Below, one piece after another: positions 23,422-51,254 of a stretch of 64,000 nt of DNA; within the stretch, counting starts at the first letter, position 1; each line of letters opens with the position of its first letter. Origin of the DNA: Gammaproteobacteria bacterium (lineage in GTDB: Bacteria > Pseudomonadota > Gammaproteobacteria > JAADGQ01). The translations under genes and the position numbers were made by a program. Location of the stretch: positions 8,433-72,432 of the forward strand of contig WFXF01000002.1 in NCBI GenBank assembly GCA_015490755.1. The letters are read 5' to 3'. The notes beneath the pieces were generated by a model. It did not search any database, was not told the origin of the DNA, and worked only from the letters and a program-made list of their open reading frames with translations.

Positions 23422-26400
23422 TTATCAGCCTGTTTTTTCTCTGGAATTTTATAGGTTGAAACTTTTTCTACAACAGGCTCATCCCAAGATCCTGTGACGC
23501 GATATTCAGTGCTGGCGATGGTATCCAGCTTGGGTAAAAATACTTTTTGAAAAATAAGTACAGCAGCACCCGCACCCATCCAGCTGGAGCCTGCGGCAAT
23601 TGCACCCGCAACGGGTAGTATGGAGCTGACTTTTGGAGTCACTAATACTTGTTGATTATAGTCCTCATCAGCCAGTCCTATACGGCCAATCATTTTAACC
23701 TCAGCTGCACTGCTTGTCATGACCAGATTTTCAGTAAATGCATCACCCATGTCAATTTTGTAGTCACCTATAATTTTGTCAAACTTAAAGCCTTTGCCGA
23801 AGAGATCTCTAAAGTCCAAAGCGAGTCGTTTTGGCAGAGCTTGCAGGCTTAACAGGCTTACAATGCGTCCAGCACCGGGTTTAATATCAGTCAGTTGGCC
23901 ATCCCTGATATCCATGTTGAGATCACCGCGAAAGCGTGTCAAATCAAAGTCAGTAGGTGAGCCGAGCCAGTTGGCATTGATTTTAACTCCTCCTTTACCA
24001 CCTTTGATCGGCATGACAACGTCAAAAAGCGCGAGTGTTTTGGGCAGTTGATTAATTTTTAGATCAATTTCAAAGGCTGTTTTTTGTTGGTTGTTAATGT
24101 CAAGCCAATCACCTTGCGCTGTAATTTTAGTATGGCTTGAGTCGAGGGTAATTTTCTCAAAATGGAGGCCATTTTTCTGTGATGTCGCGGTGAGGCTTAG
24201 TGTTCCAAAATTGTTACCATTAAAAATAAATTGCTGGCTTGTGATTTGTAACGAAGGTATTTTTTTAGGGTCTGCCGCAGGTGAAGGTGATTGAATTTCA
24301 CGCTCTTTTTGCGATTGAAGTTCAAGGTGTTCAAGATTCATTATGATGGGCAAAGAGATTTGACGCGGCAGAGAGATCATCCCTTTAAGCTGTGTGCTGT
24401 CAATATCGACCTGCCAGGCCTGTTTTGTTCTATTCACAAAAACATTAGCCTGGTCAAAATATTGGCCGAAAGCCTCCATTGAGTTGATCTGTAAATCAAT
24501 ACTGTTAGGTAGGTTGATATCACTTTTTTGCTCCGTTGATTCAGGAAGTACACTTAGCCAGTCACTGATAGAGAGTTTTGGTAAGCTGCCAGCAATACGT
24601 AGTTGTGGTTTGTTAGGGAGTACTGCGAAATCATCACCAAAACGAAGTTCACCGCGTTCCCACACAACTGTTTCCTGAGTCGCATCACGTAAAAATATAC
24701 CATTAATTTTTTCCCCATAACGAAGGGTAACCGGTTCTTTCAGTGCGCCCCCCAGCAGCCCCATTTCCAGAATAAAAGTACGTGGCTCTATTGATTGTTT
24801 TTTGAGTGGGTATGGCAGGGTAATGGCCAGCCCTTTTAGTAAAGACTCGACGTGCAAATTGACATCGGGTGGTTTATTTTTACCCTTTTCCGAGGTTAGT
24901 TGAAGCCGTGCATGCCAGTCTGTTTTCCCCTTTAAAAAGCGATTGTCAGGGAGGTGAATGATTTTTGATAGTCGTGTCGCATCAACGATGCCATCCGCAG
25001 TAAACTGGATAATATTGTTTTTTTGATTATCGTGATGGGTGCGAATGACCAGTTCAGTCTCCATGCCGAGCAATTTGCCCTGAATACCGGGTGAATAAAT
25101 CCCTTGCTCTGAAAAAACAAGCATGCCTTGCAGTTGTTCGAGATCAACAGCACCTTCTGCGAGCAATAGTGTATTGTTATCAAATGTAATTTCACCATTA
25201 ACTTTGTGACCGGTGGGCGCAATCGGCAGGTCGAGTTGCAGATGCAATTGACTTGGACCTGTTGCTTCACTGCTCGTGGCAAAAGTTCCGAACTGTGCTT
25301 TTAGTGGGCTCTCTTTAAGGAACTTCAAGGTATCAGAAAGCGGGCCATCAATATAACCATTGATGGTTATATTTAGTGGATTGTCTTTAAAATCTAAAAT
25401 AAGTGCGTTGACATCACGTAATTGTGAATTGAGTAATTGGCCTGATGTGGCATTGATCTCCATACCTGCGCCCTTGAATACCGCTTCAAGTTGCAGCGCT
25501 TCCAGCCGAGGCCAGTGATCCAGGTAGTCAAGAGTTGCATTTTCAGCATTGAAACGTACCTCAAAGTGACCCTGGTTTTTTCTAAATGGAAACCCTTTGA
25601 GCGGGCCATGAAAAAGAATACTTCCATGAGTGACATGGCCATCAATAATGGAATTGTCCAGCCACGTGACTGCTCCTTCCGGCATAATTCCCACGGGTAA
25701 ATAACGTGATGTTTTCTTGGCATCTCCATCTGAAAAATTTGCAAAAATTTCCAGAAATGGAGGTGAGTGGTCTGAAGGAAACTCAAGCAACATTGAGCCT
25801 CTAGCCGTAATATCGCTATTTTTTAATACAATATCGCTTGATTGAATACGCCAACCGATATCACTTTTTCCCCAATGCAGGCGGCCATTCAATAAATCCA
25901 CAGGCAATTTTTCACGAAACAGCATGCCTGTATCCAGTTTTGCAGTATGGCTGTTGATATCAAGTATGCCTGCCTGTTGATTTAAAGTAATGGAGCCATT
26001 GAGGTTTTTTATGCCGGGAATTGGGTGGCTAAATTGTGTTGTCAGGTTTCTAAACTTTGATTGGAATGAGAATGTTTCAGAGCTCTCTTTGTTTGCTTTT
26101 TGGTACTGTAAATAGGTGTCAGAAAAAGAGCCGGCAGGTTTTAATTTTTTCAGTAGTTTTGTCGTTTTTTGATCCAGCAGGTCACTGTTCAATAATAAAT
26201 CTCGCAAGTCATCAATTTGAATAAATGAGCTTCGTACTGTGTAGTGTTCGGAGGGTTGAGCGCTGTTTTTTTCAATACTAAACTGGCTTGTGGGCCAGGT
26301 ATGTCTGTTTCGTTGGAGAATAAATTGATCAATATCCAATATAAAGCCTTCTTGTTGACGTAACCAGGCAAAATTTCCAGAAAGTCGATCAATTAAAAAT

Positions 26401-27359
26401 GGTCTGTTTTTAGAGGTGCTTTTGCCAGTTTTAACTGAATCGAGCCGAATATGTTGCCCATTGAGCATGCCAGAGGCTGAAGTGATGAGTGATTTTTCCC
26501 AATGACTCCATAGTTTAAGGTTTATTTTCCCTGTGAGTGTGAGCTGTTGTTTGGGTGTTAAAATGTTCAACCACTCTTGCGGGTTGATATTTGTACCTTC
26601 AATGTAGACCTGGCCAGACCACTGTTCAGGTTTTGATAGATCACCTGTGCCATCAAGTGCAAAAGAGAGCTGCTCTCCCAGACTGTTAGGTAGTGAAATT
26701 TTTGCGGTGAGTTGATGGCGGCCATTAATATTGCGGGTTTCAATTTGTGCATCCTGAAAGGTGAGTTGATGATTGCCTGTTATCTGGTCTGTCCAGAGTA
26801 GCTTTTTAACTTCAATATTAATTTGCTCCTGACTGAGTAACCAGCGTAGGGTTTCTATTCCATGTTGGTCGTCTGTCGCTTTTTCAGGTGTGAAATTTAA
26901 CTCTTTAAGCAGTAACTCTCCCTGCTTGTTACGTTGCAAGTCTAATTGATCAATTGACAAGTCAAGTTGATCCAGGGTGATGTTCCAGCGATGCAGTGAT
27001 TCGAGCAGGTCTAAACCGATCAGGGCTTTTTCAAAATTGAGCAGGGTATGTTTTTCAGTGTTGTCTAGCAGTTCGAGTCCATGAAGCTCCAGGCGGGGGC
27101 CAAAGCGATACCAGCGGGCTTTGATTTCAGTGATACGCACAGGTTGTCCCAGTGCGTCACTGACGGCTGCTTCAATGCTCTGACGGTAAGCTCCAATTTC
27201 AGGCAAAACAACACGGGCTATACTGAGGAATACGGCCAGAATGATGATGAAAGCAACAAATGTATGGCGGCTTATGTGAAAACAGTTCCACAGGCAAAGT
27301 TTTATAAAGTGATCTTTGCCAGGCTTTTCATCTTTTTTACGATCTACTGCTTGAGCCAT
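23418..27359 (-). CDS. yhdP: YhdP-family AsmA-like protein (TIGR02099; envelope lipid transport)
   Basis: 1313 aa with an N-terminal TM anchor. Its size and its position next to rng match E. coli yhdP. Confidence 0.85.
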   Translation of the reverse strand: MAQAVDRKKDEKPGKDHFIKLCLWNCFHISRHTFVAFIIILAVFLSIARVVLPEIGAYRQSIEAAVSDALGQPVRITEIKARWYRFGPRLELHGLELLDNTEKHTLLNFEKALIGLDLLESLHRWNITLDQLDLSIDQLDLQRNKQGELLLKELNFTPEKATDDQHGIETLRWLLSQEQINIEVKKLLWTDQITGNHQLTFQDAQIETRNINGRHQLTAKISLPNSLGEQLSFALDGTGDLSKPEQWSGQVYIEGTNINPQEWLNILTPKQQLTLTGKINLKLWSHWEKSLITSASGMLNGQHIRLDSVKTGKSTSKNRPFLIDRLSGNFAWLRQQEGFILDIDQFILQRNRHTWPTSQFSIEKNSAQPSEHYTVRSSFIQIDDLRDLLLNSDLLDQKTTKLLKKLKPAGSFSDTYLQYQKANKESSETFSFQSKFRNLTTQFSHPIPGIKNLNGSITLNQQAGILDINSHTAKLDTGMLFREKLPVDLLNGRLHWGKSDIGWRIQSSDIVLKNSDITARGSMLLEFPSDHSPPFLEIFANFSDGDAKKTSRYLPVGIMPEGAVTWLDNSIIDGHVTHGSILFHGPLKGFPFRKNQGHFEVRFNAENATLDYLDHWPRLEALQLEAVFKGAGMEINATSGQLLNSQLRDVNALILDFKDNPLNITINGYIDGPLSDTLKFLKESPLKAQFGTFATSSEATGPSQLHLQLDLPIAPTGHKVNGEITFDNNTLLLAEGAVDLEQLQGMLVFSEQGIYSPGIQGKLLGMETELVIRTHHDNQKNNIIQFTADGIVDATRLSKIIHLPDNRFLKGKTDWHARLQLTSEKGKNKPPDVNLHVESLLKGLAITLPYPLKKQSIEPRTFILEMGLLGGALKEPVTLRYGEKINGIFLRDATQETVVWERGELRFGDDFAVLPNKPQLRIAGSLPKLSISDWLSVLPESTEQKSDINLPNSIDLQINSMEAFGQYFDQANVFVNRTKQAWQVDIDSTQLKGMISLPRQISLPIIMNLEHLELQSQKEREIQSPSPAADPKKIPSLQITSQQFIFNGNNFGTLSLTATSQKNGLHFEKITLDSSHTKITAQGDWLDINNQQKTAFEIDLKINQLPKTLALFDVVMPIKGGKGGVKINANWLGSPTDFDLTRFRGDLNMDIRDGQLTDIKPGAGRIVSLLSLQALPKRLALDFRDLFGKGFKFDKIIGDYKIDMGDAFTENLVMTSSAAEVKMIGRIGLADEDYNQQVLVTPKVSSILPVAGAIAAGSSWMGAGAAVLIFQKVFLPKLDTIASTEYRVTGSWDEPVVEKVSTYKIPEKKQADK

Positions 27360-27374
27360 TAGTCTCTTAAATAT

Positions 27375-28832
27375 TTACAACAAAATAATATCGAATTGCT
27401 CTTGGGTATAAGTGGCCTCAATTTGGAATTTTACTGGTTTGTTGATGAACTCTTCCAGTTCAGCAACACGGGTAGACTCTTCATCAATTAAGCGGTCAAC
27501 AACCTCAGGACAGGCAAGAACCAGATATTCCCGAGCATCAAATTGGCGGGCTTCACGCATAATTTCACGAAAAATATCATAGCAGGTGGTTTCGGCTGTT
27601 TTTACAGAGCCTCGACCATTACAGGTTGGACATGTCTCGCATAGAATGTGCTCCAGGCTTTCGCGGGTACGTTTGCGGGTCATCTCGACCAGCCCTAGTG
27701 CTGAAACGGTACTGATATTATATTTTGAATGGCTATTCGCCATGTGTCTTTCCAGTGCTTGCAGTACCTGCTGTTTATGTTTTTCGTCAGTCATATCAAT
27801 AAAATCGATGATGATGATACCGCCAAGGTTACGTAATCTGAGTTGTCGAGCAACCGCATGAGTCGCTTCAAGGTTGGTTTTAAAAATGGTTTCGCTGAGG
27901 TTTTTATGTCCGACAAATGCTCCCGTATTCACGTCAATAGTTGTCATGGCTTCTGTCTGGTCTATGACCAGATAACCACCGGACTTGAGTTGAACCTGGC
28001 GCTCAAGCGCTTTCTGGATTTCATCTTCAATGGAGTAGATGTCAAAGATGGGACGTTCACCTGGGTAATGTTGTACACGATCTGCTATTTCAGGTAGGAA
28101 AGTTTGGGCAAAATGAGCTGCACGCTGATGTGTTTCCCGTGAATCGATACGTATTCGATCAATATCCTGGTTGACCATGTCACGCATGGTGCGCATGGCG
28201 AGTGGAAAACCTTCGTAGACCATCATTCCGACTGTTGCATTTTGAATGCGCTCTTGTACTTTTTTCCATAATCGATTCAGGAAGTCCATATCAGCCAACA
28301 GATCTTTTGTATCGGATCCTTCAGCCGCTGTACGTACTATATAGCCATGTCTATTTTCTGTGGCTGCACTCTGAATAATTTTTTTAAGGCGTAATCGCTC
28401 CTTTTCATTCTCGATTTGGTGTGAGATGCCAATGTCTGTTGTATTGGGAATCAGTACAAGGTAGCGAGATGGAATAGATATGTGTGTGGTTAAACGTGCG
28501 CCTTTTGTTCCCAATGGGTCTTTGATGACCTGTACCAGTAACTCTTGACCGTCATGGAGCAGTGAGCGAATCTGTTTCTCATTATGTTCACTATCATTGC
28601 CAGGTAAAGTTCGTATATCAGACGCATGAAGAAAAGCAGAGCGTTCCAGGCCTATATCAATAAAAGCGGCCTGCATACCGGGTAAAATCCGGCACACTTT
28701 ACCGTGGTAAATATTGCTCACCAGGCCACGTTTGCTGCTACGCTCGATATGTACTTCCTGAAGCACACCATTTTCGACGATTGCGACTCGTGTCTCACTG
28801 GGGGTGACGTTAATTAATATCTCTTCACTCAT
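27375..28832 (-). CDS. rng: ribonuclease G
   Basis: An S1 domain plus the RNase E/G catalytic domain; 485 aa. Confidence 0.93.
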   Translation of the reverse strand: MSEEILINVTPSETRVAIVENGVLQEVHIERSSKRGLVSNIYHGKVCRILPGMQAAFIDIGLERSAFLHASDIRTLPGNDSEHNEKQIRSLLHDGQELLVQVIKDPLGTKGARLTTHISIPSRYLVLIPNTTDIGISHQIENEKERLRLKKIIQSAATENRHGYIVRTAAEGSDTKDLLADMDFLNRLWKKVQERIQNATVGMMVYEGFPLAMRTMRDMVNQDIDRIRIDSRETHQRAAHFAQTFLPEIADRVQHYPGERPIFDIYSIEDEIQKALERQVQLKSGGYLVIDQTEAMTTIDVNTGAFVGHKNLSETIFKTNLEATHAVARQLRLRNLGGIIIIDFIDMTDEKHKQQVLQALERHMANSHSKYNISTVSALGLVEMTRKRTRESLEHILCETCPTCNGRGSVKTAETTCYDIFREIMREARQFDAREYLVLACPEVVDRLIDEESTRVAELEEFINKPVKFQIEATYTQEQFDIILL

Positions 28833-28878
28833 GTTTTATATATCGGCCGCTATTGCACCTGCCTTGTTGAAAAATATT

Positions 28879-29349
28879 TTAGGCACGATGGTAGGGGTGG
28901 TTGGCCAGGATGCTCCAGGCACGGTAAATCTGTTCGGCAAGTAGTATGCGTACCAGCGGATGAGGCAGCGTGAGTGGTGAAAGTGACCAGGATTGCCGGG
29001 CACGGTTCAGGCAGGATGGGTCGAGCCCTTCTGGGCCACCAACAAGGAGTGCGATATTGCGCCCATCTTGCATCCATTGACTCATTTGAGATGAAAGCTT
29101 TTCTGTACTCCAGCTCTGGCCTTTAACATCCAGTGCAATGGTCAGGCAATCTTTGGGAAGTACAGCGAGCATACGTTCACCTTCTTGCTGCAAAATACGT
29201 TTAATATCGCTATTTTTACCACGCTTGCCAGCAGGAATTTCGTGGAGATTCAGTCTGCACTCGTGGGGGAGGCGTTTGGCGAACTCAGAGTAACCGTCAT
29301 TGACCCATCGAGGCATTTTTTGGCCGATTGCAACAAGGTGGATCTGCAT
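28879..29349 (-). CDS. rlmH: 23S rRNA (pseudouridine1915-N3)-methyltransferase RlmH
   Basis: 156-aa SPOUT methyltransferase; MQIHLVAIG… is the typical RlmH N-terminus. Confidence 0.92.
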   Translation of the reverse strand: MQIHLVAIGQKMPRWVNDGYSEFAKRLPHECRLNLHEIPAGKRGKNSDIKRILQQEGERMLAVLPKDCLTIALDVKGQSWSTEKLSSQMSQWMQDGRNIALLVGGPEGLDPSCLNRARQSWSLSPLTLPHPLVRILLAEQIYRAWSILANHPYHRA

Positions 29350-29352
29350 GAG

Positions 29353-29694
29353 CTAACTTGCTACTTCAGCATCGGTATTCCAAAGCTTTTCCAGTTGATA
29401 AAACTCGCGCATATCAGGTGTCATGATATGAATAACAACATCAGCGAGATCAACTAATATCCAGTTTCCGGGGTGCTGCCCTTCAACACCGATCGGCGTA
29501 CAGCCGTTTTCCTTGCTTTTTACGATAACACTATTGGCCAGCGCTTTGACCTGGCGGTCAGAGCTACCCGTGGCAATGATCATAAAGTCAGTGACACTGC
29601 TCATGCCGCGTACGTCGAATACTTGAATATTGATACCTTTTAAATCTTCCAGGGCTTCGAGAGAAATATTTTTTAATTGCTCAGGGCTGATCAT
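29353..29694 (-). CDS. rsfS: ribosomal silencing factor RsfS
   Basis: 113 aa of the Iojap/YbeB family, directly upstream of rlmH. Confidence 0.92.
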   Translation of the reverse strand: MISPEQLKNISLEALEDLKGINIQVFDVRGMSSVTDFMIIATGSSDRQVKALANSVIVKSKENGCTPIGVEGQHPGNWILVDLADVVIHIMTPDMREFYQLEKLWNTDAEVAS

Positions 29695-29740
29695 TACATT
29701 ACTTCTTGCATTTGATAGTCGCGCGAGTATAACAGATGTG

Positions 29741-29914
29741 CTACTTGTTTTGGGTCACGAGCGCACTACTTTCCAAAGCAGCAGACAAGTTTTGGGCCAT
29801 TTTTAGTTGCAGTCGTGCAGTTGACATGCTGTTGATGGTCAATAAAGAGAGCACCAGAAGCAACACAATGCTGACTATGAGCATACCGCCCAGCTGTTTT
29901 TCCCTATGTTTCAT
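29741..29914 (-). pseudogene. 58-codon remnant encoding only the N-terminal (PilX_N-like) segment of a type IV minor pilin
   Basis: The minus-strand translation is MKHREKQLGGMLIVSIVLLLVLSLLTINSMSTARLQLKMAQN…. This is a prepilin-like hydrophobic N-terminus followed by the PilX-type (S/T)xxLxxxMAxN motif. It is not in the ORF track because it is under 60 aa, and no globular domain follows. Confidence 0.45.
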
Positions 29915-29918
29915 TACA

Positions 29919-30923
29919 TTATTTTACCTGATCCGTTTGCTTGATTTTCTTCAAATATATAATCGATGCTCTTCGGTTCTCATCATCTGGATAGACACGA
30001 CCGGAGGTGAGGCAAGTAAAAATATGTTTGAAAACTTCGCCGGGAGTGCCTTTTTTGGTTCCAGAGCGAAAATAGGAGTGGCCTTTGGGGCGGTCATATG
30101 CACTATTAACATCATCGCAATCAACTCGATATACATTTCTTGGTGTTTTCTCTATATCTTCCGGGCCGGTATGACCTAACCTGCGAGATGCAATTTTATT
30201 TTTAAGGTTTGAAACTTTGCTTGCTCGAAGTGCCAGGTCATCCGATGCGTGATAAACAATAACATTACGTGAAGTATGGCAGATTAATTCTCCAGGCTCA
30301 CCTTTGTGAAGTGTTTCATTGACTACATCAGCAGCGACCATGAAGGTGTTTCTAAAAATCAGGGGCAACCCTTTGGGCAGGTCATATTTGCCCCAGACGG
30401 ATAATGTTTCTCGTAGAACACGGTTCCCCATAGAGTGAGCTAATAAGTTGACTCTTTTCAGGCAGGGTTCATCCTGAGGGTTATATTTTTCAGAATTACG
30501 CCATGCTATGAATTTTTCTAATACTCTTGCAAAAGAGAAGGCACTTTGGTCAGCAGCTTTTTGATCATCCCAATAATCCTTGATAATTCCTAAATCGTTG
30601 TCGCATGGCCAAACGATGGGGATGACTAGAATTTCACCCTTTTTAGTTTTTTCACAAAGGTTTTGAAATTCATTAACGGCAGAAAACACATCTTCAGGAA
30701 GGTTGGAAAACCCATGGATGTATATAAGAATCTGGCGACATTCCGACCCTTTTAGCCGACTTAAAAACTCAATACTGCCAATCTCTTTGTACTCTTTTTC
30801 AGATAAACGTTCACAGAAAAATACTGAATTGCTTGCTGCATTATTATTTAGGTCAAAATCAAAATTTCGTCCAACCCGGGTTCGAATGCTCTGTTTTGGG
30901 AATCGGTTTGTAATAAAAATCAT
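29919..30923 (-). CDS. alpha/beta-hydrolase fold protein (putative esterase/lipase, DUF900-like). It is an orphan and AT-rich.
   Basis: 334 aa with the nucleophile elbow AHSMG (GxSxG-type), IYIHGF upstream, and candidate Asp/His downstream. It sits where nadD would normally precede rsfS. Confidence 0.7.
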   Translation of the reverse strand: MIFITNRFPKQSIRTRVGRNFDFDLNNNAASNSVFFCERLSEKEYKEIGSIEFLSRLKGSECRQILIYIHGFSNLPEDVFSAVNEFQNLCEKTKKGEILVIPIVWPCDNDLGIIKDYWDDQKAADQSAFSFARVLEKFIAWRNSEKYNPQDEPCLKRVNLLAHSMGNRVLRETLSVWGKYDLPKGLPLIFRNTFMVAADVVNETLHKGEPGELICHTSRNVIVYHASDDLALRASKVSNLKNKIASRRLGHTGPEDIEKTPRNVYRVDCDDVNSAYDRPKGHSYFRSGTKKGTPGEVFKHIFTCLTSGRVYPDDENRRASIIYLKKIKQTDQVK

Positions 30924-30953
30924 TTTAATTTCTCTCCTTATAAAAATTAAGCT
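30824..30953. repeat. copy 1 of a 130-bp direct duplication (the first 33 codons of the hydrolase gene plus 30 bp upstream)
   Basis: Near-identical, with a single 1-nt indel, to 32124-32253. Confidence 0.9.
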
Positions 30954-31020
30954 CTGAACTTTGAACCGAAGTAAAAGAGCAAGTCAGAGTGTAGAAGTTA
31001 TTTCGTGAACGTTCCTAAGT

Positions 31021-31110
31021 GCCGTGTTAAGTGGTTTTGCTTTTCACTATAAGGATATCAGTTTGAAAAACGGTTTTGGTGACCCTAATAATCTGCATAT
31101 GTTTCTTTGA
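31021..31110 (+). pseudogene. fragment paralogous to the C-terminal part of the 185-aa membrane protein at 32905-33462
   Basis: About 80% nucleotide identity to 33247-33336. It translates to AVLSGFAFHYKDISLKNGFGDPNNLHMFL*, against AVLSGFAFHYEDINLAGGFGDPDNLHMLLG in the intact gene. Confidence 0.4.
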
Positions 31111-31120
31111 GTTTTGGATG

Positions 31121-31148
31121 TTGATTGTAATAAATCTAATGTTATAAT
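31121..31148 (+). promoter_or_regulatory. candidate sigma-70 promoter of the TA operon
   Basis: TTGATT, then a 16-nt spacer, then TATAAT, ending 38 nt upstream of the antitoxin ATG. An AAGAGG RBS lies at 31175-31180. Confidence 0.4.
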
Positions 31149-31186
31149 GTGTATCTAATGTATGCACAGAAAAAAGAGGTTATCTT

Positions 31187-31450
31187 ATGAGCAAAACCGC
31201 ATCTATCAATATGCGTGTTGAGCCTAGCCAGCACGAACTTTTAACAAAGGCATCAAGAATTCTACATAAAGATAGAAGTGCCTTTATTTTAGATATTGCC
31301 TGTCGAGAAGCAAAAAATGTACTGCTGGATCAACGTTTGTTTTTATTAGAAAGTGAGGCTTTTGAAAAGTTTGAGCAGGCTTTAAATACTCCACTGGCTG
31401 AAAACAGTAGACTAGAGCAACTTATGGCTGAGCCGTCACCGTGGGATTAA
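31187..31450 (+). CDS. DUF1778-family antitoxin of the TacA/AtaR/KacA type (RHH fold)
   Basis: 87 aa. INMRVEPSQHELLTKAS…SAFILD…A…VL… matches the DUF1778 consensus. It overlaps the toxin gene by 10 bp. Confidence 0.88.
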   Translation: MSKTASINMRVEPSQHELLTKASRILHKDRSAFILDIACREAKNVLLDQRLFLLESEAFEKFEQALNTPLAENSRLEQLMAEPSPWD

Positions 31451-31938
31451 TAAAAAAACCTGAATTACTTGATAGCAAACATAATGTTTTAGGCTTTAAC
31501 TGTGGTAATGAAACCTTAAATGATTGGTTAAAAAAGAAGGCTTTAAAAAATCAAAGGCAGGGAGCAAGTAAAGCCTTTGTTATTTGTGATGACATACAGG
31601 TTGTTGGTTACTACGCTTTGGCAACAGGCAGTGTGGAAAGAATAAATGCACCCAAGTCTTTAGCACGAAATATGCCGAACCCTATACCTGTTATTGTTCT
31701 TGGCAGGTTGGCGATTGACCAGCAGTTTCATGGTAAAAAACTTGGTTCAGCACTACTTAAAGATGCCATAAAACGTACTATTTATATATCTGAAAATGTA
31801 GGTGTAAAGGCTTTACTGGTGCATGCAATTTCAGAAGAAGCTAAAAGATTTTACCTTCACCACAATTTTATTGAATCACCTATAGAATCAATGACGTTAT
31901 TATTATCAATGAATAATAAGAAAAGACTTATAATCTAG
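31441..31938 (+). CDS. GNAT-family toxin (aminoacyl-tRNA-acetylating, TacT/AtaT/KacT-like)
   Basis: 165 aa with an acetyl-CoA binding segment (…QQFHGKKLGSALLKDAIKR…) and the conserved pairing with an upstream DUF1778 antitoxin. Confidence 0.86.
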   Translation: MGLIKKPELLDSKHNVLGFNCGNETLNDWLKKKALKNQRQGASKAFVICDDIQVVGYYALATGSVERINAPKSLARNMPNPIPVIVLGRLAIDQQFHGKKLGSALLKDAIKRTIYISENVGVKALLVHAISEEAKRFYLHHNFIESPIESMTLLLSMNNKKRLII

Positions 31939-32100
31939 GAGCCTGTCCGAGAATGAAAAGTCTACTGCGGAAAATCCATTTCGGCCATATTTGGTGTAAA
32001 TTTTCGTTAAATAGAACAACTATTCGCCTCAAATTTACACCAAATCTGCCATCAAAATGGCTTTCCCTCGCTACGACTTCCATTCTCGGACAGGCTCCTA
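31938..32100. repeat. 163-bp palindromic MITE-like element with 17-bp terminal inverted repeats (GAGCCTGTCCGAGAATG … CATTCTCGGACAGGCTC)
   Basis: Left and right TIRs, and internal inverted segments (ATTTGGTGTAAATTT / AAATTTACACCAAAT), are directly visible. It starts at the toxin stop codon. A second partial copy lies at 51147-51254. Confidence 0.7.
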
Positions 32101-32123
32101 GTCATGGTACTTTACCAATGAAC

Positions 32124-32253
32124 TGAATTGCTTTGCCGCATTATTATTTAGGTCAAAATCAAAATTGCGTCCAACTCGGGTTCGAATGCTCTGTTTTGGG
32201 AATCGGTTTGTAATAAAAATCATTTTAATTTCTCTCCTTATAAAAATTAAGCT
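32124..32253. repeat. copy 2 of the 130-bp direct duplication. It carries a truncated hydrolase start (46-codon relic ORF on the minus strand).
   Basis: Matches 30824-30953. Confidence 0.9.
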
Positions 32254-32307
32254 TCTTTTAAGCTTACATGGTTATGCTGTCACTCTTGGGTCTATAGAAA
32301 TAGAGTA

Positions 32308-32892
32308 ATGGTTATGAGTGAAAGTAGCACAAAACAAATTAAAGTATGGGATGGCCTTGTGCGCGGTTTTCACTGGCTGATGCTGCTCTCTTTTGTGGGC
32401 GCTTATATTACTAGCCAGTCAGGAATGCAGCAAACTCATATTTTGATTGGCTACTTCATCTGTTTATTACTGATTATTCGTACTGTGTGGGGCTTTATCG
32501 GAAGCAAACATGCGCGCTTCTCTGATTTTGTTGCTTTACCTTCACATGTATGGGCTTATCTGCAAGCCAGCTTTAGAAACAGTCCCCCTCATTATTTTGG
32601 TCATAATCCAGCTGGTGGCTGGATGGTGTTGGCTTTGATGGGGGCGCTTTTGTTGATGTCTGTGAGTGGAGTGATTCTTGTCTCTGTAATCGAATTTGAA
32701 GGGCCACTACTGAATTTATTGTCTGGTATGAGTGATCAGTGGGCCTATCGCTATGAAGAGCTGCATGAAGTGGCACTTAACATCTTGTGGTTGTTGATCG
32801 CAGGGCATTTAGTGGGTGTGGTCGTTGCATCAATTCAACATAAAGAAAATCTGCTACGTGCCATGGTCAGTGGGTATAAAATTATAAAATAG
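32308..32892 (+). CDS. cytochrome b561 family protein (CybB/YceJ-like, PF01292)
   Basis: 194 aa with four TM helices and conserved His (…FHWLMLL…, …GHLVGVV…) in the Ni/Fe-hydrogenase b-type cytochrome fold. Confidence 0.85.
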   Translation: MVMSESSTKQIKVWDGLVRGFHWLMLLSFVGAYITSQSGMQQTHILIGYFICLLLIIRTVWGFIGSKHARFSDFVALPSHVWAYLQASFRNSPPHYFGHNPAGGWMVLALMGALLLMSVSGVILVSVIEFEGPLLNLLSGMSDQWAYRYEELHEVALNILWLLIAGHLVGVVVASIQHKENLLRAMVSGYKIIK

Positions 32893-32904
32893 ATATGAGG
32901 GAAA

Positions 32905-33462
32905 ATGATGAAAAAGTATTTAGCGATCTGCTGCATATTATTTAGCTGGAATTGCTCTGCTCAAGCTCAGGAATACATGCCAGAACACTTTTTGGATTTG
33001 TCTGTTAAGCCGCAACCGTATACATCCTATATTCAATTAGCCCAGCTTGATACGGCAAATTTAAATGCTACCCATGAAGGCCATAATGAAGAGAAGAAAC
33101 CCCTGTTTAAATCCAGGCCTGTGACTTTGAATAAAGTGCATAAATATCTTGGTTACGCTTCAATGGTAAGTGCTGTATTGACAGGGTTGTCACCCAAAAC
33201 AGCCGGGGGTCCTCATGAGCTTTTTGGTACAGCCGCAGCCGCTTTTGGTGCGGCAGCTGTGTTAAGCGGTTTTGCTTTTCATTATGAAGATATCAATTTG
33301 GCGGGTGGTTTTGGCGACCCGGATAACTTGCATATGCTTCTTGGCATTTTAGGAACCGCAGGTTATGCCGTTGCTGTGAGTAGTGGTGAAGATGGTGGGC
33401 ATGGTGGTCCTGGTACTCTTGGTGCGCTCAGCATGGCTATGGCTATTAAATTAACCTGGTAG
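32905..33462 (+). CDS. hypothetical protein: signal peptide, a roughly 70-aa periplasmic segment, then Gly/Ala-rich TM helices flanked by His residues
   Basis: 185 aa with no recognisable family. Tightly coupled (a 12-bp gap) between the b561 gene and the c-type cytochromes. Confidence 0.6.
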   Translation: MMKKYLAICCILFSWNCSAQAQEYMPEHFLDLSVKPQPYTSYIQLAQLDTANLNATHEGHNEEKKPLFKSRPVTLNKVHKYLGYASMVSAVLTGLSPKTAGGPHELFGTAAAAFGAAAVLSGFAFHYEDINLAGGFGDPDNLHMLLGILGTAGYAVAVSSGEDGGHGGPGTLGALSMAMAIKLTW

Positions 33463-33472
33463 GAGCTTAAGA

Positions 33473-33865
33473 ATGAATAAAATATTAATTTTTGTGGTTG
33501 CAATACTCTTCTCATCAATTGCATTGGCGACAACCCCCATTGATCAACGTATGGCTGATTATAACCCTGATGGTAATCTGATATTTGATGCTAAACGTGG
33601 TGAAGATTTATGGAATCAGAAGCGTATGGTTGATGGCAAACAGCGTGATTGTAACGCTTGCCACGGTAAAGATCTCACACAGCCGGGTGAGCATGTAAAA
33701 AGTGGCAAAGTGATTAAGCCTATGGCCTATTCAGTCAATAAGGAGCGTTTCACTAAACTGAAAAAGGTCAAAAAGTGGTTCAAACGTAATTGTAAATGGA
33801 CTTATGGACGCGAGTGCACCACTCAAGAGAAAGGTGATTTGCTTAAATACTTATCTCAATTTTAA
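33473..33865 (+). CDS. monoheme c-type cytochrome (single CxxCH; SHP/DUF1924-like)
   Basis: A signal peptide and one CNACH haem-binding motif; 130 aa. Confidence 0.75.
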   Translation: MNKILIFVVAILFSSIALATTPIDQRMADYNPDGNLIFDAKRGEDLWNQKRMVDGKQRDCNACHGKDLTQPGEHVKSGKVIKPMAYSVNKERFTKLKKVKKWFKRNCKWTYGRECTTQEKGDLLKYLSQF

Positions 33866-33881
33866 ACAGGGCTGAAATATT

Positions 33882-34448
33882 ATGACTAAAAGACTAACAA
33901 TATTATCTATAGTGACTCTCTTGGGGCTGGGAATCAATACGTCGGTCTTTGCAGATGGTGAAAGTTTTTTTGATTGGTTGTTGACTACGGATTCGCGTAA
34001 CGAAATCAAACCCATGCAGAATGAGTTATATAATGAGGAGTGCAGCGACTGTCACTTTCCTTATCAGGCGGGCCTATTACCGGAAGCCTCTTGGAAAAAG
34101 CTGCTTGACCCTAAAGCACTGGAAGACCATTTTGGTGATAATGCTGAATTAGATGATGAAACAAGGAGTGCAATATTGGATGCTTTGATTGCGGATTCGG
34201 CCGATAAATCACGATATAAGCGTTCCAAAAAAATTATGTCATCACTGGGCGAAAATGAAGTGCCCATGCGTATTATTGATATTCCTTATATTAAGCGTAA
34301 GCATCATGAAATTTCTGATAAACTCATCACTGGAAATGACAAGGTGAAATCATTAAGTTTTTGCGATGCATGTCATCAAAAAGCAGATGAGGGAATCTAT
34401 GATGATGACAGCGTGGTAATTCCTGGGCATGGTAACTGGACGTGGTAA
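33882..34448 (+). CDS. diheme cytochrome c (DHC family)
   Basis: A signal peptide and two CxxCH motifs (CSDCHF and CDACHQ) about 105 aa apart, as in DHC. Confidence 0.8.
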   Translation: MTKRLTILSIVTLLGLGINTSVFADGESFFDWLLTTDSRNEIKPMQNELYNEECSDCHFPYQAGLLPEASWKKLLDPKALEDHFGDNAELDDETRSAILDALIADSADKSRYKRSKKIMSSLGENEVPMRIIDIPYIKRKHHEISDKLITGNDKVKSLSFCDACHQKADEGIYDDDSVVIPGHGNWTW

Positions 34449-34468
34449 TAACCGTGGAAAATTGAATC

Positions 34469-35131
34469 ATGCGTATACTTCTGGTTGAAGACGATCCGCA
34501 GTTGGGCGATGGCATTCGTACCGGTCTGCAACAGGTCAGTTATGCTGTAGATTGGTTACGTGATGGCTTGGGCGCTTTGCATAGTCTGGAAGTCGAAAAC
34601 TTTGATATGGTGATACTCGATCTGGGTTTGCCACGTATGGATGGTCTCAGTGTACTGGAGAAAATTCGTGCTTCCGGCAACGATGTACCCATATTGATTT
34701 TAACAGCGAGAGACACTGTTGCAGATCGTGTCAAAGGGCTTGACAGCGGTGCCGATGATTATTTGGCAAAACCATTTGATCTGGATGAGTTGTGCGCTCG
34801 AATAAGGGCATTGAGTCGTCGTCACAGTGGCCGGGCATCCTCATTAATCAAGTACCGTGATATCGTTTTGGATCCAATGGCTCACAGCCTCAATAAAAAC
34901 GGTGAAGAGATAAATCTATCAACCCGAGAATTTAAAATTCTACAAATTCTGTTTGAAAATATCGGTCGTGTCTTGTCCAGAGAGCGCATTGAAGAAAGCT
35001 TGTTCGGCTGGGATGATTCACTTGAAAGTAATGCCACCGAAGTTCATATTCATCATCTGCGCAAAAAATTGGGCAAAGATCTTATTGTGACTATTCGCGG
35101 TGTTGGTTACATGATCGCTAAAGAGAGTTGA
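34469..35131 (+). CDS. OmpR/PhoB-family DNA-binding response regulator
   Basis: A receiver domain (DD…D…K) plus a winged-helix trans_reg_C domain. Confidence 0.93.
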   Translation: MRILLVEDDPQLGDGIRTGLQQVSYAVDWLRDGLGALHSLEVENFDMVILDLGLPRMDGLSVLEKIRASGNDVPILILTARDTVADRVKGLDSGADDYLAKPFDLDELCARIRALSRRHSGRASSLIKYRDIVLDPMAHSLNKNGEEINLSTREFKILQILFENIGRVLSRERIEESLFGWDDSLESNATEVHIHHLRKKLGKDLIVTIRGVGYMIAKES

Positions 35132-36483
35132 TGAAACCCCGTTCAATCCGTCAAAACTTATTATTATTGGTATTGGGGGCAGTATTCATCTCTTGGGCAG
35201 TAGTTGCTCTGTTTGTCTATAAAAGTGCTAAACATGAAACTGAAGAGGTTTATGATGCACATCTGGTTCAAAGTGCCAAGTTGTTAGCCTCATTAATCAG
35301 GTATGAGCAGGAAAAGAGTCATCAGCTACAGGTTGAGATGGATGACTTTCTACCCATAGCACATAAATACGAATCTAAAATATCTTTTATTGTTTATTAT
35401 GGTGATGGAAAGGTAATGGTTCGTTCAGCATCGGCTCCAATACTGCCGGAGATTGAATCTTTCAATAATTTCAAACAGATCGAAGTTGATGGCGTCATTT
35501 GGTATACCTATAACCTTCGTGACCCCAAGACAAACTTACTTATTCAAACCGCTCAACGTTATGATGTCCGCCAGGAACTGATTAACTATATTAGTAGTAG
35601 CGTATTAGGTGTAATGCTGCTTTCTCTGCCGTTTATCGCAATTTTGATCTGGATTACTATTGGTCGAGGCCTGCGCCCATTGGTTCTGCTGGCAGATTCT
35701 ATATCGGGCCGATCAGTACAGCAGTTGGAGCCGATTACACTCGAAAGAGTGCCTACTGAAGCACAGCCTATTGTTTATGCTTTGAACTCTCTTTTTAATC
35801 GCTTGTCGCAAGCTTTTGAAAAAGAGCGACGCTTTACTGCGGATGCGGCTCATGAGTTGCGTACACCATTGTCAGGTATAAAAACCCAGGCACAGGTGGC
35901 TCTGCGATCAACAGAAAACAAGCAGCGACAGCAAGCGATAGTGCAAGTGATTACGGGCGTTGAACGTACAACCAAGCTGGTCAATCAGCTGTTAATTCTT
36001 GCCAGAGTTGATGCTGAGCAACATATCGTTAAAACTGAGCTGAACCTGAAACAGCTATGCGCGACCGTGATTAGCGAACAGATTGTTTCAGCTCTGAGTA
36101 AAAATATAGATATCAGTCTGGAAGGTGAGTCACTTGTAACCATAAATGGTAATGAAGAGTTGATACATATTTTGATTGCGAATGTAATCAATAATGCAAT
36201 ACGTTATACGCCCAGCGAAGGGCGTATTATTGTCAGTGTAACAAGTGATGCGCAGGGTATAGTGTTTGAGGTGAAAGATTCCGGTTTTGGTATATCTAAA
36301 TCATTGCAGACAGAAGTTTTTAATCGTTTTAAACGTGGTGAGCATTCAGATATTTCTGGTAGCGGATTGGGGTTATCAATAGTGTTGCGAATCTCCGAGC
36401 TACACCGTGCAAGAATTCAGCTGGGTGAAGGTTTGGATAATGCAGGGCTTAGTGTCAAAATCACTTTTGAACAAACTGCGTAA
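35128..36483 (+). CDS. sensor histidine kinase (two TM, HAMP, HisKA, HATPase_c)
   Basis: H-box AHELRTPL and G1/G2 boxes (GSGLGLSIV). Overlaps the regulator gene by 4 bp. Confidence 0.92.
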   Translation: MMKPRSIRQNLLLLVLGAVFISWAVVALFVYKSAKHETEEVYDAHLVQSAKLLASLIRYEQEKSHQLQVEMDDFLPIAHKYESKISFIVYYGDGKVMVRSASAPILPEIESFNNFKQIEVDGVIWYTYNLRDPKTNLLIQTAQRYDVRQELINYISSSVLGVMLLSLPFIAILIWITIGRGLRPLVLLADSISGRSVQQLEPITLERVPTEAQPIVYALNSLFNRLSQAFEKERRFTADAAHELRTPLSGIKTQAQVALRSTENKQRQQAIVQVITGVERTTKLVNQLLILARVDAEQHIVKTELNLKQLCATVISEQIVSALSKNIDISLEGESLVTINGNEELIHILIANVINNAIRYTPSEGRIIVSVTSDAQGIVFEVKDSGFGISKSLQTEVFNRFKRGEHSDISGSGLGLSIVLRISELHRARIQLGEGLDNAGLSVKITFEQTA

Positions 36484-36500
36484 GGAACGTTCACTTCACC

Positions 36501-36932
36501 TTATATCTTTACGTAATGGATTCGCCCTTGTTCCGTTAATTGAATATTCAACCTCTCTGAGCGATGCCAATTCGCTAATTTTTTTGGGCTGACCTTAAAG
36601 TAGTGTGCTAATTCATTTTGGTGAATAATGCTCTGCCGTTTTTTTCGATTGGCATGGCGGTTATGTAACAGGATATTGTATTTGATCCACAACCAAAAAC
36701 TCACAATTATTGTAGTGATGAGTGACAAAAGGGCTATAAATATTTCAATATTGATCCCTCGTTCATCAATACTTATGGCTGACAGGTCAATACCCGCAAA
36801 TGTGAGTAGCGGTTTAAGTGCGGGTAGTAGCAAATAGATCCACAGCATCCATAATACGAGCGTTATCGAGCTTAGTGTAATCCTTTGTGGTATGCCTTGG
36901 AGATGGGGGTTTTGGATGATTAACGTGTTCAT
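36501..36932 (-). CDS. pgaD: poly-beta-1,6-N-acetyl-D-glucosamine biosynthesis protein PgaD
   Basis: 143 aa with two TM helices, directly after pgaC (1-bp overlap). Confidence 0.8.
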   Translation of the reverse strand: MNTLIIQNPHLQGIPQRITLSSITLVLWMLWIYLLLPALKPLLTFAGIDLSAISIDERGINIEIFIALLSLITTIIVSFWLWIKYNILLHNRHANRKKRQSIIHQNELAHYFKVSPKKLANWHRSERLNIQLTEQGRIHYVKI

Positions 36933-38194
36933 TAGCGTATTCCTCTGTCAGGGCTGACCCAGGTGGCTCGTGAGCTGCGCTGGGTTAATAGTGTTTTGGG
37001 AAGTGCTACAGTCATGGTTAACAGATTGATTAACCAGTAGACCAGGGGGTACCAGATCATCCAGTAATAAAGTCTGCCCAGGCTTTTTTCATAGCGACCA
37101 TCAATATAGAAGCTCACAGCAAACTGAATGAGGCAGGTCAAACCGAGTAGAAGGCCTGCAGAACTTGGTATGAAGGAAAATGCCGTCATACCTTCTGGAT
37201 GTGGAATGAATGGCATCAGTGCCCATAGTATGATTAGGGATATGACCCCATAGGTCCACAAAATGCTGATGAAATATTCAGTCAATAATAACCACAAGCG
37301 TCGTTGGCGCAGACGTATGACTTGTGGCAGATAGCGAATAAAGACTTCGACACCTCCTTGTGCCCAGCGAAGGCGCTGTTGCCATAGACCCTTGAGTGTT
37401 TCCGGCATTAAAATCCAGCATAAAGCGTTTGGCTCGAAACGGATGTCCCACCCTTTTAATTGCAGCTTCCAGGTTATATCTATGTCTTCAGTAATTGCAT
37501 CTACGCTCCAATAATCAGCATCTTGCAAAGCAGATTTTCGAAATCCGGCAATGACACCAGAAATAGAGAACAGACGGCCATAGACACGTTGAGCACGCTT
37601 TATAAGGCCAACAATGGAAGAGAATTCACCGACTTGTATTTTGCCAAGAAGGGTAGAGCGAGTGCGTACACGAGGGTTGCCGGTTACAGCACCGACGCGA
37701 GGGCTGCTAAGGAAATGCCGCATGATCCAGCCGGTGGCATTGCTATCAAGCAGGGCATCACCATCAATACAGACGAGGAATTCATTAGATGACACCATCG
37801 CACCCATACGTAGAGCCATGGCTTTACCCTGGTTTTCTTCCAGGTGTACGACGCGTAAGCGGGAGTACTTTTTATTCAGTTTATCCAGTAATTCACCAGT
37901 GTTATCAGTACTTCCATCATTGATAGCAATAATGTCAAAATAAGGGTAGTTTTGTCTGTTCAGTGCCGCGATGGTTTCACTTAAATTATCACCTTCGTTA
38001 TGACAAGGAACAAGTATGCTGACGTGAGGATAGGCTGGCAGACTGTTCAGTATGCTCCCACCGTTAGGCTGGTTTCGTTCCCACTTGATGTAGTATATGA
38101 TGCCGCCGATCATCCAGACATAGGCCATCAGCAATGGATAGTAATAGGCAAAGCTGAGCGTTGAACTTAGGTAGAGAGGGAGCCAGTTTTCCAT
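36932..38194 (-). CDS. pgaC: poly-beta-1,6-N-acetyl-D-glucosamine synthase (GT2)
   Basis: A GT2 catalytic domain (D, DxD, QxxRW = QQRLRWAQG) flanked by TM helices. Confidence 0.93.
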   Translation of the reverse strand: MENWLPLYLSSTLSFAYYYPLLMAYVWMIGGIIYYIKWERNQPNGGSILNSLPAYPHVSILVPCHNEGDNLSETIAALNRQNYPYFDIIAINDGSTDNTGELLDKLNKKYSRLRVVHLEENQGKAMALRMGAMVSSNEFLVCIDGDALLDSNATGWIMRHFLSSPRVGAVTGNPRVRTRSTLLGKIQVGEFSSIVGLIKRAQRVYGRLFSISGVIAGFRKSALQDADYWSVDAITEDIDITWKLQLKGWDIRFEPNALCWILMPETLKGLWQQRLRWAQGGVEVFIRYLPQVIRLRQRRLWLLLTEYFISILWTYGVISLIILWALMPFIPHPEGMTAFSFIPSSAGLLLGLTCLIQFAVSFYIDGRYEKSLGRLYYWMIWYPLVYWLINLLTMTVALPKTLLTQRSSRATWVSPDRGIR

Positions 38195-38196
38195 GG

Positions 38197-39639
38197 TTAT
38201 TTCCTCTTGTTAAGTTCTGGTATTGACAATGACGCGTGTATATTGCGTACAGTTTTGAGTGTCGGACGATACAGGCGGGCACGTTCGGCCAGAGCATCGG
38301 CCCATTGATTCAAGCTCTCATGGTTGCTTTGGTCGGAATCATAATGAAAAGCCAGGCCATCAATATGGGTGTATTTGGTGAGGTCTTCGTAGATATCACC
38401 GACAAGTTGCAAGGCTTGCTGGCTGTTTTTCGATACGAGTTGATTCAATGGAAAATCATAGGCCATGAGAGGCAATGAAGCGTAGACCTTTACTCCAGTG
38501 CGAGTTCGTAGTTGCCAGGCCACACGGCTGAATAGATCGGCCTGCATCGGAAGGTGGCGATTGGGAAAATAGAGTGCATCAGCATTGCCGTCTTTATTGG
38601 TATCGGTATAAGCTGATAGATAGACGGTATTGGCTTTAATTGCCTTAACACGATCTAGCAGAAATCCCAGATTCTTTTCTTGTTGTTTAGGGTTTGGGTC
38701 GTAAATATCATCGAGACTCAGATAGACTGAACGTACGGGTTCAATATCGGGTTTGTAGTGGTTGTTGATTTGCCATACAAAATCAGCCAGTGTGATGCCG
38801 TGGCCAATCAATAGGCGGTTTAAACTGCCAAGGTTTTTAATATCTATTGGGCCATCTTCAAGGCTCATTGTGATGGGCATACCAACTTCATTGGCAATGT
38901 TGTTGGTAATGCGATTATAAGCGCCGTAAGGCCACACCATGACTCGTGGTTTATGACCTGTTTTACGAGCAATAAGGTCAGAGTTTCGTTGCAGATCGTT
39001 GCGAATACGTTGTTTGTATTGCTCGTCACTTTCGTAGCTATTTGTATCGGCGTTATAATGTCGGCTGACAGCTGCTGGCCGACTGTTTTTTTGTGGGTTT
39101 GCGATGATGCCATGATGCAGGTTATAGCTATGTGAAGCTATTTCCACGTATCCAGAGTTTGCCATCTCGCGTATCTGATCCCAATTTAGAAAATATTTAC
39201 GTGCTATGAGATCGCTGCCATACATCACTTGTCTGCTCGCAGGTACTTCTATCCATTTTCCAACGACTGCGATCACGGCTTGATAGTCAAATATGCGCAA
39301 CAATGGATAGACCTGTTCATACATTCCACGATAGGCATCATCAAAAGTGAGTAGAACGGCCTTATCTGGTAGAGCGCGCTTTCCCTTCTGTGCATCCAGC
39401 AAATCATCAATTCCTACGGATTCATAACCGTGCTCTTTGAGCCAGGAAAACTGCTTGGCCAATTCAGATGTTGTTATTGCCATGGCTGTGAAATTTTTAT
39501 CATGATTAAGCGAATGGCTTGTTTCGTGGTACGAAAGTACGATTAAATCTGCTTTGACAGGTGCAGTGATCATCACTATTAGTAATGACACCATGCCCCA
39601 TAGGTAATGCTCTGTTTTTTTTATTTTTTTCATGGTCAA
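38197..39639 (-). CDS. pgaB: poly-beta-1,6-N-acetyl-D-glucosamine N-deacetylase PgaB (shorter than E. coli PgaB)
   Basis: A signal peptide, an N-terminal CE4 deacetylase domain (TFDD…) and a C-terminal GH-like domain; 480 aa. Confidence 0.85.
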   Translation of the reverse strand: MTMKKIKKTEHYLWGMVSLLIVMITAPVKADLIVLSYHETSHSLNHDKNFTAMAITTSELAKQFSWLKEHGYESVGIDDLLDAQKGKRALPDKAVLLTFDDAYRGMYEQVYPLLRIFDYQAVIAVVGKWIEVPASRQVMYGSDLIARKYFLNWDQIREMANSGYVEIASHSYNLHHGIIANPQKNSRPAAVSRHYNADTNSYESDEQYKQRIRNDLQRNSDLIARKTGHKPRVMVWPYGAYNRITNNIANEVGMPITMSLEDGPIDIKNLGSLNRLLIGHGITLADFVWQINNHYKPDIEPVRSVYLSLDDIYDPNPKQQEKNLGFLLDRVKAIKANTVYLSAYTDTNKDGNADALYFPNRHLPMQADLFSRVAWQLRTRTGVKVYASLPLMAYDFPLNQLVSKNSQQALQLVGDIYEDLTKYTHIDGLAFHYDSDQSNHESLNQWADALAERARLYRPTLKTVRNIHASLSIPELNKRK

Positions 39640-51146: not shown

Positions 51147-51254
51147 TTTTTCGGTATTTTGAGGCGAATAGTTGTTCTATTTAACGAAAATTTACACCAA
51201 ATCTGCCTCAAAATGGCTTTCCCTCGCTACGACTTCCATTCTCGGACAGCCTCC
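51147..51254. repeat. second, partial copy of the MITE-like element (right half and TIR)
   Basis: …TTTACACCAAATCTGCC[T]CAAAATGGCTTTCCCTCGCTACGACTTCCATTCTCGGACAG[C]CTCC is almost identical to 32048-32100. The centre is inverted relative to copy 1. Confidence 0.65.

Follow-up and report, generated by a model that had tools for sequence, protein, structure and literature searches.

We examined a 64-kb stretch of DNA (64,000 nucleotides, hereafter the window) from a Gammaproteobacteria bacterium (GenBank assembly GCA_015490755.1, contig WFXF01000002.1), in which a predicted toxin-antitoxin (TA) cassette is bracketed by two direct copies of the beginning of a neighbouring hydrolase gene. From left to right, the locus comprises an intact DUF900 alpha/beta-hydrolase gene of 334 aa on the minus strand (29919-30923; Pfam PF05990, E=4.6e-15), the first repeat copy (30823-30953, 131 nt), a spacer of 1168 bp (30954-32121), the second repeat copy (32122-32253, 132 nt) and, on the plus strand, a cytochrome b561 gene that is the first of a divergent operon (32308-32892; Pfam PF01292, and synteny with the sister-species locus L004). 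Copy 1 has the native hydrolase body as its left flank and the insert as its right flank, and the right flank of copy 2 is the native intergenic region followed by the cytochrome b561 operon. The insert contains, in this order, a 67-bp segment, a 95-bp gene scrap (hereafter C'), the TA promoter and its two genes, a MITE (miniature inverted-repeat transposable element) and a 20-bp segment.

On the minus strand, each copy of the repeat carries the ribosome-binding site (RBS; AAGGAGAG), the ATG and the beginning of the hydrolase coding sequence, with DNA homology that starts 30 bp upstream of the ATG and reaches hydrolase codon 33/34. Based on a repeat search and a MAFFT alignment, the two copies differ by three substitutions and one 1-nt indel (~97% identity), and their right-hand 75 nt are identical. 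The sequence was seen twice only within the 64 kb. The window has just four direct-repeat families of at least 40 nt, and none of the others is as long, which rules out chance; the 131-bp repeat is real and far beyond what chance would produce. Copy 1 holds the RBS, the ATG and the first 33 codons of the intact gene, the protein of which is also present in identical form in a draft assembly (GCA_027051705.1). The start in copy 2 is a relic, listed as an open reading frame (ORF) of 41 codons (32098-32223, minus strand) that runs from the hydrolase start into the insert. Its translation equals the hydrolase for 30 residues and is then frameshifted at codon 31 by the indel of copy 2, and it is also annotated as a 41-aa gene in locus L007. 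A first-pass annotation, made from the letters of the window, had reported a near-identical direct duplication with a 1-nt indel, and the repeat search and the alignment both recovered it, including the RBS, the ATG and the first 33 codons in both copies. It had located the copies correctly with boundaries that are 1-2 nt off (30824-30953 and 32124-32253), so that its 130 bp becomes 131/132 nt, and the relic that it counted as 46 codons has 41.

A sister species, represented by L004 (GCA_054016435.1) and L005, provides the corresponding empty site. The region has ~82% nt identity to the window and the hydrolase has 94% aa identity. There, the hydrolase gene and the cytochrome b561 operon are divergent direct neighbours, ~85-91 bp apart, the 131-bp sequence is single-copy, and neither the TA pair nor the MITE is present. 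Without the insert and one repeat copy, the window is collinear with L004 at 85-88% identity up to both junctions; the native left flank is therefore the one next to copy 1, and the native right flank the one next to copy 2. The ancestral order shown by this comparison would be the hydrolase gene (minus strand), a divergent intergenic region and the cytochrome b561 operon. The sliding identity to L004 revealed no foreign patch extending beyond the insert. That a relative lacking the TA pair should keep exactly one copy had been put forward as a check in the first-pass annotation, and L004 and L005, the nearest such relatives available, do so, between the hydrolase and cytochrome b561 genes, as members of a sister species.

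The central part of the insert is a compact two-gene unit on the plus strand. A putative sigma-70-like promoter (31121-31148; TTGATT-16-TATAAT, with TG before the second hexamer) precedes a TacA-type (DUF1778) antitoxin gene of 87 aa (31187-31450; Pfam PF08681, TacA1, E=1.8e-21), which overlaps by 10 nt with a TacT/AtaT-like GNAT acetyltransferase toxin gene of 165 aa (31441-31938; Pfam PF13508/PF13673/PF00583). By its gene order, overlap, toxin size and own promoter, the pair is a predicted type II TA module of the TacAT/AtaRT type. Relatives with 82-90% aa identity were found in four other contigs (L089-L092, from the protein database and a metagenome scan), in contexts unrelated to that of the window (metallophosphatase; Trm112/KdsB; a Gp49-HTH pair). 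In every case the DNA of the cassette is 81-86% identical to that of the window, and the shared DNA starts at 31112-31120, that is at the -35 box, and ends at 31929-31930, within the last codons of the toxin. As the similarity is confined to this interval, the transferable unit is the promoter with the two genes; no conserved terminal motifs of the shared unit were found among L089-L092.

The sequences on both sides of the TA unit also bear on its origin. At the left end, the 67-bp segment (30954-31020; GC 38.8%) matched neither the rest of the window nor any fetched locus. It opens with CTGAA (30954-30958), a pentamer equal to nt 2-6 of the repeat (30824-30828 and 32123-32127), which may be a trace of microhomology or a chance match (about 0.5%). 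C' follows (31021-31115, plus strand) and corresponds to codons ~118-147 of a homologue of a 185-aa gene, ending in a stop codon (tblastn, 73% aa identity, E=1.6e-11). The resident counterpart (33256-33350, plus strand) lies inside the intact 185-aa gene (32905-33462). At the nucleotide level, C' is 79% identical to the resident stretch and 83.75% identical to the L004 orthologue, and the resident gene and the L004 orthologue share ~84% identity over the same stretch. The changes in C' are a mixture of synonymous and conservative ones, and its GC content is 34.7% vs 44.6% in the resident 185-aa gene. C' thus appears to be a scrap of a diverged foreign orthologue of the 185-aa gene, which lies 2.2 kb downstream, and it is absent from all of the closer TA relatives (82-90% aa identity). 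At the right end, a 20-bp segment (32102-32121) would have directly followed the toxin stop codon before the MITE arrived. Across its parts the insert has a GC content of 35-39% vs 43.7% for the window, and it looks foreign and AT-richer than the host DNA.

The order of the features, repeat, scrap and further on repeat, cytochrome b561 gene and 185-aa gene, resembles a collapsed tandem duplicate. It could have arisen by tandem duplication of the interval from the hydrolase start to the 185-aa gene, then internal deletion and a later gain of the TA pair. However, C' is 79% identical to the resident gene vs 97% between the repeats, therefore these are not duplicates of the same age; moreover, C' has diverged to a similar degree from the resident gene and from the L004 orthologue, its GC content is 35% vs ~44%, and the whole interval is compositionally foreign. 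With at least three events needed, this history is very unlikely. A segmental duplication followed by deletion was one of the two explanations offered by the first-pass annotation, and it is disfavoured by the same identities, by the foreign GC content and by the occurrence of the TA unit in unrelated contexts. The evidence favours the other explanation, in which the TA cassette was captured through recombination. The annotation had also described a 1.17-kb spacer with a gene fragment, the TA operon and the MITE; the length (1168 bp), the TA pair and the MITE stand, and the fragment is a scrap of the 185-aa-gene homologue and not of the hydrolase.

The MITE within the insert (167 bp, 31935-32101) has terminal inverted repeats (GGAGCCTGTCCGAGAATG) and TA/CTAG flanks, and is placed exactly on the TAG stop codon of the toxin, leaving the ORF unaltered. 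Pairing between its arms extends over 47 nt at 79% complementarity, and the terminal 18 nt match exactly. Short, non-coding and multicopy, with terminal inverted repeats and a short flanking duplication, the element has the features expected of a MITE. A truncated second copy 19 kb away (51158-51255) shows that the family is resident in the host genome, with ~1.5 copies actually seen in the window. The GCA_027051705.1 assembly breaks inside the MITE, so an identical MITE segment is present elsewhere in the reads, which implies further copies in the genome. An Rfam search of 30400-32500 returned no family at gathering score, and the sub-threshold matches, which are eukaryotic miRNA-like, fell on the MITE hairpin only.

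This break also matters for the assembly of the locus. Two contigs of GCA_027051705.1 are 100% identical to the window at 23919-32061 and 31935-39865, with an overlap of 127 bp inside the MITE. In this assembly and in the Logan contigs, both repeat copies are assembled with their own unique flanks and the four diagnostic differences, therefore the repeat is neither collapsed nor invented sequence. The Logan contigs of run SRR10312489 break where a 31-mer graph is expected to break at the identical part of the repeat, with contig L008 starting at 32224. A mis-join or collapse at the MITE could in principle have placed the copies 1.17 kb apart wrongly, or hidden a larger island between them: the split of GCA_027051705.1 makes the 127-bp overlap a branching node, and every matching contig is 100% identical to the window and may come from one shared sample. 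Such an artefact is nevertheless highly improbable given that each copy was assembled with its own flanks and differences. In addition, L004 has the hydrolase gene directly beside the cytochrome b561 gene, which makes direct adjacency across the MITE the parsimonious layout. A larger interior may have been collapsed between two MITE copies, and the bracketing duplication would be real even so. The assembly support that the first-pass annotation had called for is therefore at hand for the repeat copies, each assembled with its own flanks, but the join across the MITE is found in the window assembly only. A separate observation concerns Logan contig L003 (30990-31962) of the same run, which starts at 30990 instead of the expected 30924, which points to missing coverage or to a variant sequence around the place where the 67-bp segment meets C' in that sample.

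Direct repeats also flank the products of conventional mobile elements. Chromosomal-integron TA cassettes are bracketed by attC repeats of ~120 bp, and the locus resembles them in having a small promoter-bearing TA unit between direct repeats of ~120-130 bp. Unlike attC, however, the repeat here is no imperfect palindrome, lacks an attC core at its edge and is a single-copy native sequence in the sister species, and no integrase is present; the repeat showed no attC-like fold (fold z = 0.5), and no GTTRRRY core was found at its edges. Elements that integrate by a Campbell-type crossover, or that are flanked by att sites and mobilised in cis, likewise leave direct repeats around the insert, one of which restores the target gene, but the present locus has no integrase and no conserved att core, and the repeat is a native gene start. 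Transposons share with this locus a direct target duplication around the insert. At 131 bp, the duplication is more than 10 times the typical target-site duplication (<10 bp), as the first-pass annotation had recognised in calling it too long for a transposase product. The insert ends have no terminal inverted repeats, and no transposase or integrase was found among the called genes within ~10 kb on either side or in the insert. IS1630, with 19-26 bp, is on record as an example of a target duplication that is long and variable (PMC2853133, Figure 1). On the features tested, including the single occurrence of the hydrolase start in L004, we rejected the footprint of a transposon, of attL/attR or of integron attC, to which we give next to no weight.

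A closer counterpart is a rearrangement class of restriction-modification (RM) systems, insertion with long target duplication, which Nobusato et al. reportedly described in 2000. In this class the repeats are 46-423 bp long and often overlap the end of a flanking gene, and mobility genes are absent (PMC2853133); it is summarised in PMC3874152. Furuta, Abe and Kobayashi (2010; PMC2853133) recognised it by presence and absence of the unit in related genomes, a target that is single in one genome and directly duplicated in the other, a repeat of more than 30 bp around an insert of less than 20 kb, and no mobility genes. In the present case, the unit is present in the window and absent, with aligned flanks, from L004 and L005, which belong to another species (82% nt identity) and are not conspecific. 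A four-way alignment gave one target copy in the empty genome and two direct copies in the window, the duplication is 131/132 nt and the insert 1168 bp, and there are no mobility genes and no tRNA, att site or multicopy repeat at the ends (the internal MITE has its own ends). The exception is the cargo, which is TacA with a GNAT toxin rather than a restriction enzyme and a modification enzyme. The locus thus resembles the RM class in a unit that varies between relatives, a target found once vs twice, the lack of a transposase or integrase and an addiction-type cargo; it differs in that the cargo is a type II TA pair of the tRNA-acetylating GNAT toxin family and that the insert also carries the putative foreign scrap and a MITE. 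Structurally, the locus is best described as a probable insertion with long target duplication with a different cargo; the class of rearrangement is already known, under a name that the first-pass annotation did not give, and the type of cargo is new. We found no literature on long target duplications or flanking direct repeats for type II TA systems, in a search that left most subscription papers outside, so a prior description is possible.

We consider a one-step illegitimate insertion of foreign TA DNA, with duplication of the 131-bp target, to be the best reading of the locus, at a probability of roughly 55% and with the mechanism deduced from the end product. Illegitimate recombination, needing hardly any homology or none, would have attached the two ends of an incoming linear DNA at positions separated by 131 bp. 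The joining would have taken place at a staggered break or a replication fork, and fill-in would have duplicated the interval, with neither a transposase nor an integrase involved. The foreign piece would have been roughly 1.0 kb, made up of the TA cassette, C', the 67 bp and the 20 bp, and the MITE would have landed on the toxin stop codon later or would already have been in the donor. The event would have been retained by selection because neither flanking unit lost its coding start: copy 1 supplies the hydrolase ORF and RBS, and copy 2 the upstream region of the cytochrome b561 operon. The established TA pair would then work against deletion of the insert through repeat-to-repeat recombination, since a cell that lost it would be poisoned.

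Several points weigh against this reading. The mechanism is deduced solely from the end product, and the searches yielded no donor genome. Among species-representative genomes, the best match to the TA toxin had 63% aa identity, and none of 80 loci had the hydrolase, cytochrome b561 or 185-aa gene nearby. A 45-aa chimeric peptide query built on C' gave no protein-database candidates, the 600 pattern matches to a 57-aa chimeric query in metagenomes included no relative, and a blastn search of the insert without the MITE against plasmid and phage collections gave no match. Only the assembly of the window itself places the TA side next to copy 2 across the MITE. As the sole empty site belongs to another species (82% nt identity), that lineage could formally have lost the insert by a precise deletion. 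A one-step random insertion also leaves unexplained why the insert holds a scrap of a gene located 2.2 kb away, a coincidence of ~1 in 1000 for random DNA. Finally, the enrichment of such repeats around related TA loci, described below, was not reproduced in an independent set, and the differences between the two repeat copies fit another history better.

The two copies differ by three substitutions, none of which changes an amino acid when read in the hydrolase frame; 22% of possible changes in that frame are synonymous (P = 0.011), and polarised against L004, two of the three are derived in the relic copy (P = 0.049). Although these statistics rest on three substitutions and are weak, they hint at two parental alleles, evolving as if both inside working genes, rather than at a duplicate decaying in situ. 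Two parental alleles would be expected if the foreign DNA had first been inserted without duplication, either at codon 33/34, inactivating the hydrolase, or at position -30, cutting off a promoter. DNA of another strain of the same species would then have restored the gene by homology-facilitated illegitimate recombination (HFIR), with a homologous crossover within the body of the hydrolase gene and, at 30953/30954, an illegitimate joint, and the old 5' end would have become copy 2. The intact hydrolase ORF agrees with this, and selection to regain the gene would supply a reason for the event. However, two rare events are needed, an intermediate strain with a disrupted hydrolase and a single copy was not found, and the frameshift indel of the relic still requires a later mutation. 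Taken together, the two steps form an unlikely, though credible, alternative.

HFIR, known from Acinetobacter baylyi and Streptococcus pneumoniae, combines one homologous and one illegitimate joint. The present locus is similar to its products in that foreign DNA is integrated without a recombinase of its own, that one or both joints lack homology, and that recipient DNA can be deleted or duplicated at a joint. It differs in that no homologous anchor is identifiable in the present structure except the 131-bp repeat.

The position of C' next to the repeat brings in a further route. C' could be the repeat of a former insertion site, brought along on an excised circle, or it could indicate that donor DNA was led to this neighbourhood by homology. 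In a Campbell-type integration, a circle with the TA genes and one 131-bp copy, possibly formed by recombination between the two repeats in another cell, would have recombined homologously with the chromosome. A single crossover of this kind yields exactly the order repeat, insert, repeat, 131 bp is enough homology for RecA, and a life cycle of excision and re-integration has been hypothesised for RM units (PMC2853133). The 67 bp beside C' are not recognisable as 185-aa-gene sequence, therefore the simplest version, in which C' is the old repeat, is not supported. An illegitimate event would still be needed to bring the foreign DNA together with the 131 bp in the first place, and neither a circle nor a second site was observed; we thus give Campbell-type integration only a small chance.

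The architecture recurs at other TacAT loci. We sampled 83 TacAT-like loci from species-representative genomes for direct repeats of at least 25 nt, and found tight bracketing at 5 of the 83 vs 0.54% of control positions in the same loci, a significant enrichment. In an independent metagenome set, the enrichment was not reproduced (1 of 41 testable loci, and that one a REP-like hairpin), and the case for recurrence rests on three inspected loci (L060, L033 and L048), not on the enrichment statistic. L060, a proteobacterial metagenome-assembled genome (MAG), has its cassette between two copies of a 57-nt stretch from the 3' end of apaG (PF04379), with the intact gene upstream and the relic downstream. 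In L033 and L048, from Tychonema bourrellyi and an Oscillatoriales strain and probably representing one event, the duplication is 194 nt long and spans the promoter of a PF09720 antitoxin gene together with its ~50 initial codons. An intact PF09720 'addiction module component' antitoxin gene and a ParE toxin gene lie just downstream, and the upstream copy continues in frame into TacA, so that a chimeric antitoxin of 133 aa results (L033 1550-3058; L048 5538-6675). This chimera was created by the 194-nt duplication around the TacAT cassette, and at least two other TacAT loci thus share the architecture of the window. The bracketing repeats of L028 (52 nt) and L074 (25 nt) were left unclassified.

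The insertion has left the two flanking transcription units with unequal upstream regions. Through copy 2, the cytochrome b561 operon has kept 186 bp of native sequence before its ATG, and the hydrolase gene has only 30 bp of native upstream DNA (30924-30953), essentially the RBS. This suggests that the hydrolase lost its native promoter and that the cytochrome b561 operon kept its own; transcription of the hydrolase would now have to start from a promoter in the foreign DNA. Two weak sigma-70-like sites were noted on the minus strand at 31124-31209, back-to-back with the TA promoter.

The wider neighbourhood has rsfS, rlmH, rng and yhdP on one side; on the other are pgaABCD, a two-component system and cytochrome b561/cytochrome c genes. 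Immediately downstream of the hydrolase, a small ORF (29741-29914, minus strand, 57 aa) had no Pfam match in the window; its L006 orthologue (8966-9166) had a weak PilX_N match, and the small ORF and the hydrolase are kept together next to rsfS in three genomes. Homologues of the hydrolase with 75-94% aa identity were seen in MAGs of distant phyla by their assignment, with labels such as Desulfuromusa, Thermodesulfobacteriota, Planctomycetes, Neptunomonas, Sedimenticola and others. In the Desulfuromusa MAGs (L172 5001-5978; L173 376-1353), the hydrolase gene adjoins genes for an ISL3 transposase, AAA_28, DUF3987, an HTH protein and BrxB. The hydrolase itself looks like a horizontally moving accessory gene, possibly of defence-island origin; PADLOC returned no match for the hydrolase and the TA proteins.

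GNAT toxins of the tRNA-acetylating family have no DNA-cutting activity, and if the class of rearrangement is truly the same as that of the RM systems, the mechanism is therefore more likely to be supplied by the host. The locus would link the mobility of TA genes to the insertion with long target duplication known from RM systems, with a footprint that we argue to be independent of DNA cutting by a restriction enzyme. How TA systems integrate into genomes was described as 'unelucidated to this day' in a 2020 review (PMC7167474). The window and its sister species form a clean pair of filled and empty sites, in which a minimal TA cassette, from promoter to stop codon, would have arrived without a recombinase and left a 131-bp target duplication. 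For annotation, the duplication explains the 41-codon hydrolase pseudo-start. Together with the two analogues, which come from unrelated bacteria, the pair of sites is a concrete, testable lead on TA mobility. Speculatively, and with considerable doubt, type II TA cassettes may spread by a cycle of the RM type, with a long and variable target duplication, loss opposed by post-segregational killing, occasional excision of a circle with one repeat through repeat-repeat recombination and re-insertion at another place, of which C' would be a fossil repeat and the chimeric TacA of Tychonema and Oscillatoriales a by-product. If true, long target duplication would be a general host-driven route for addiction modules, and not a property of restriction enzymes.

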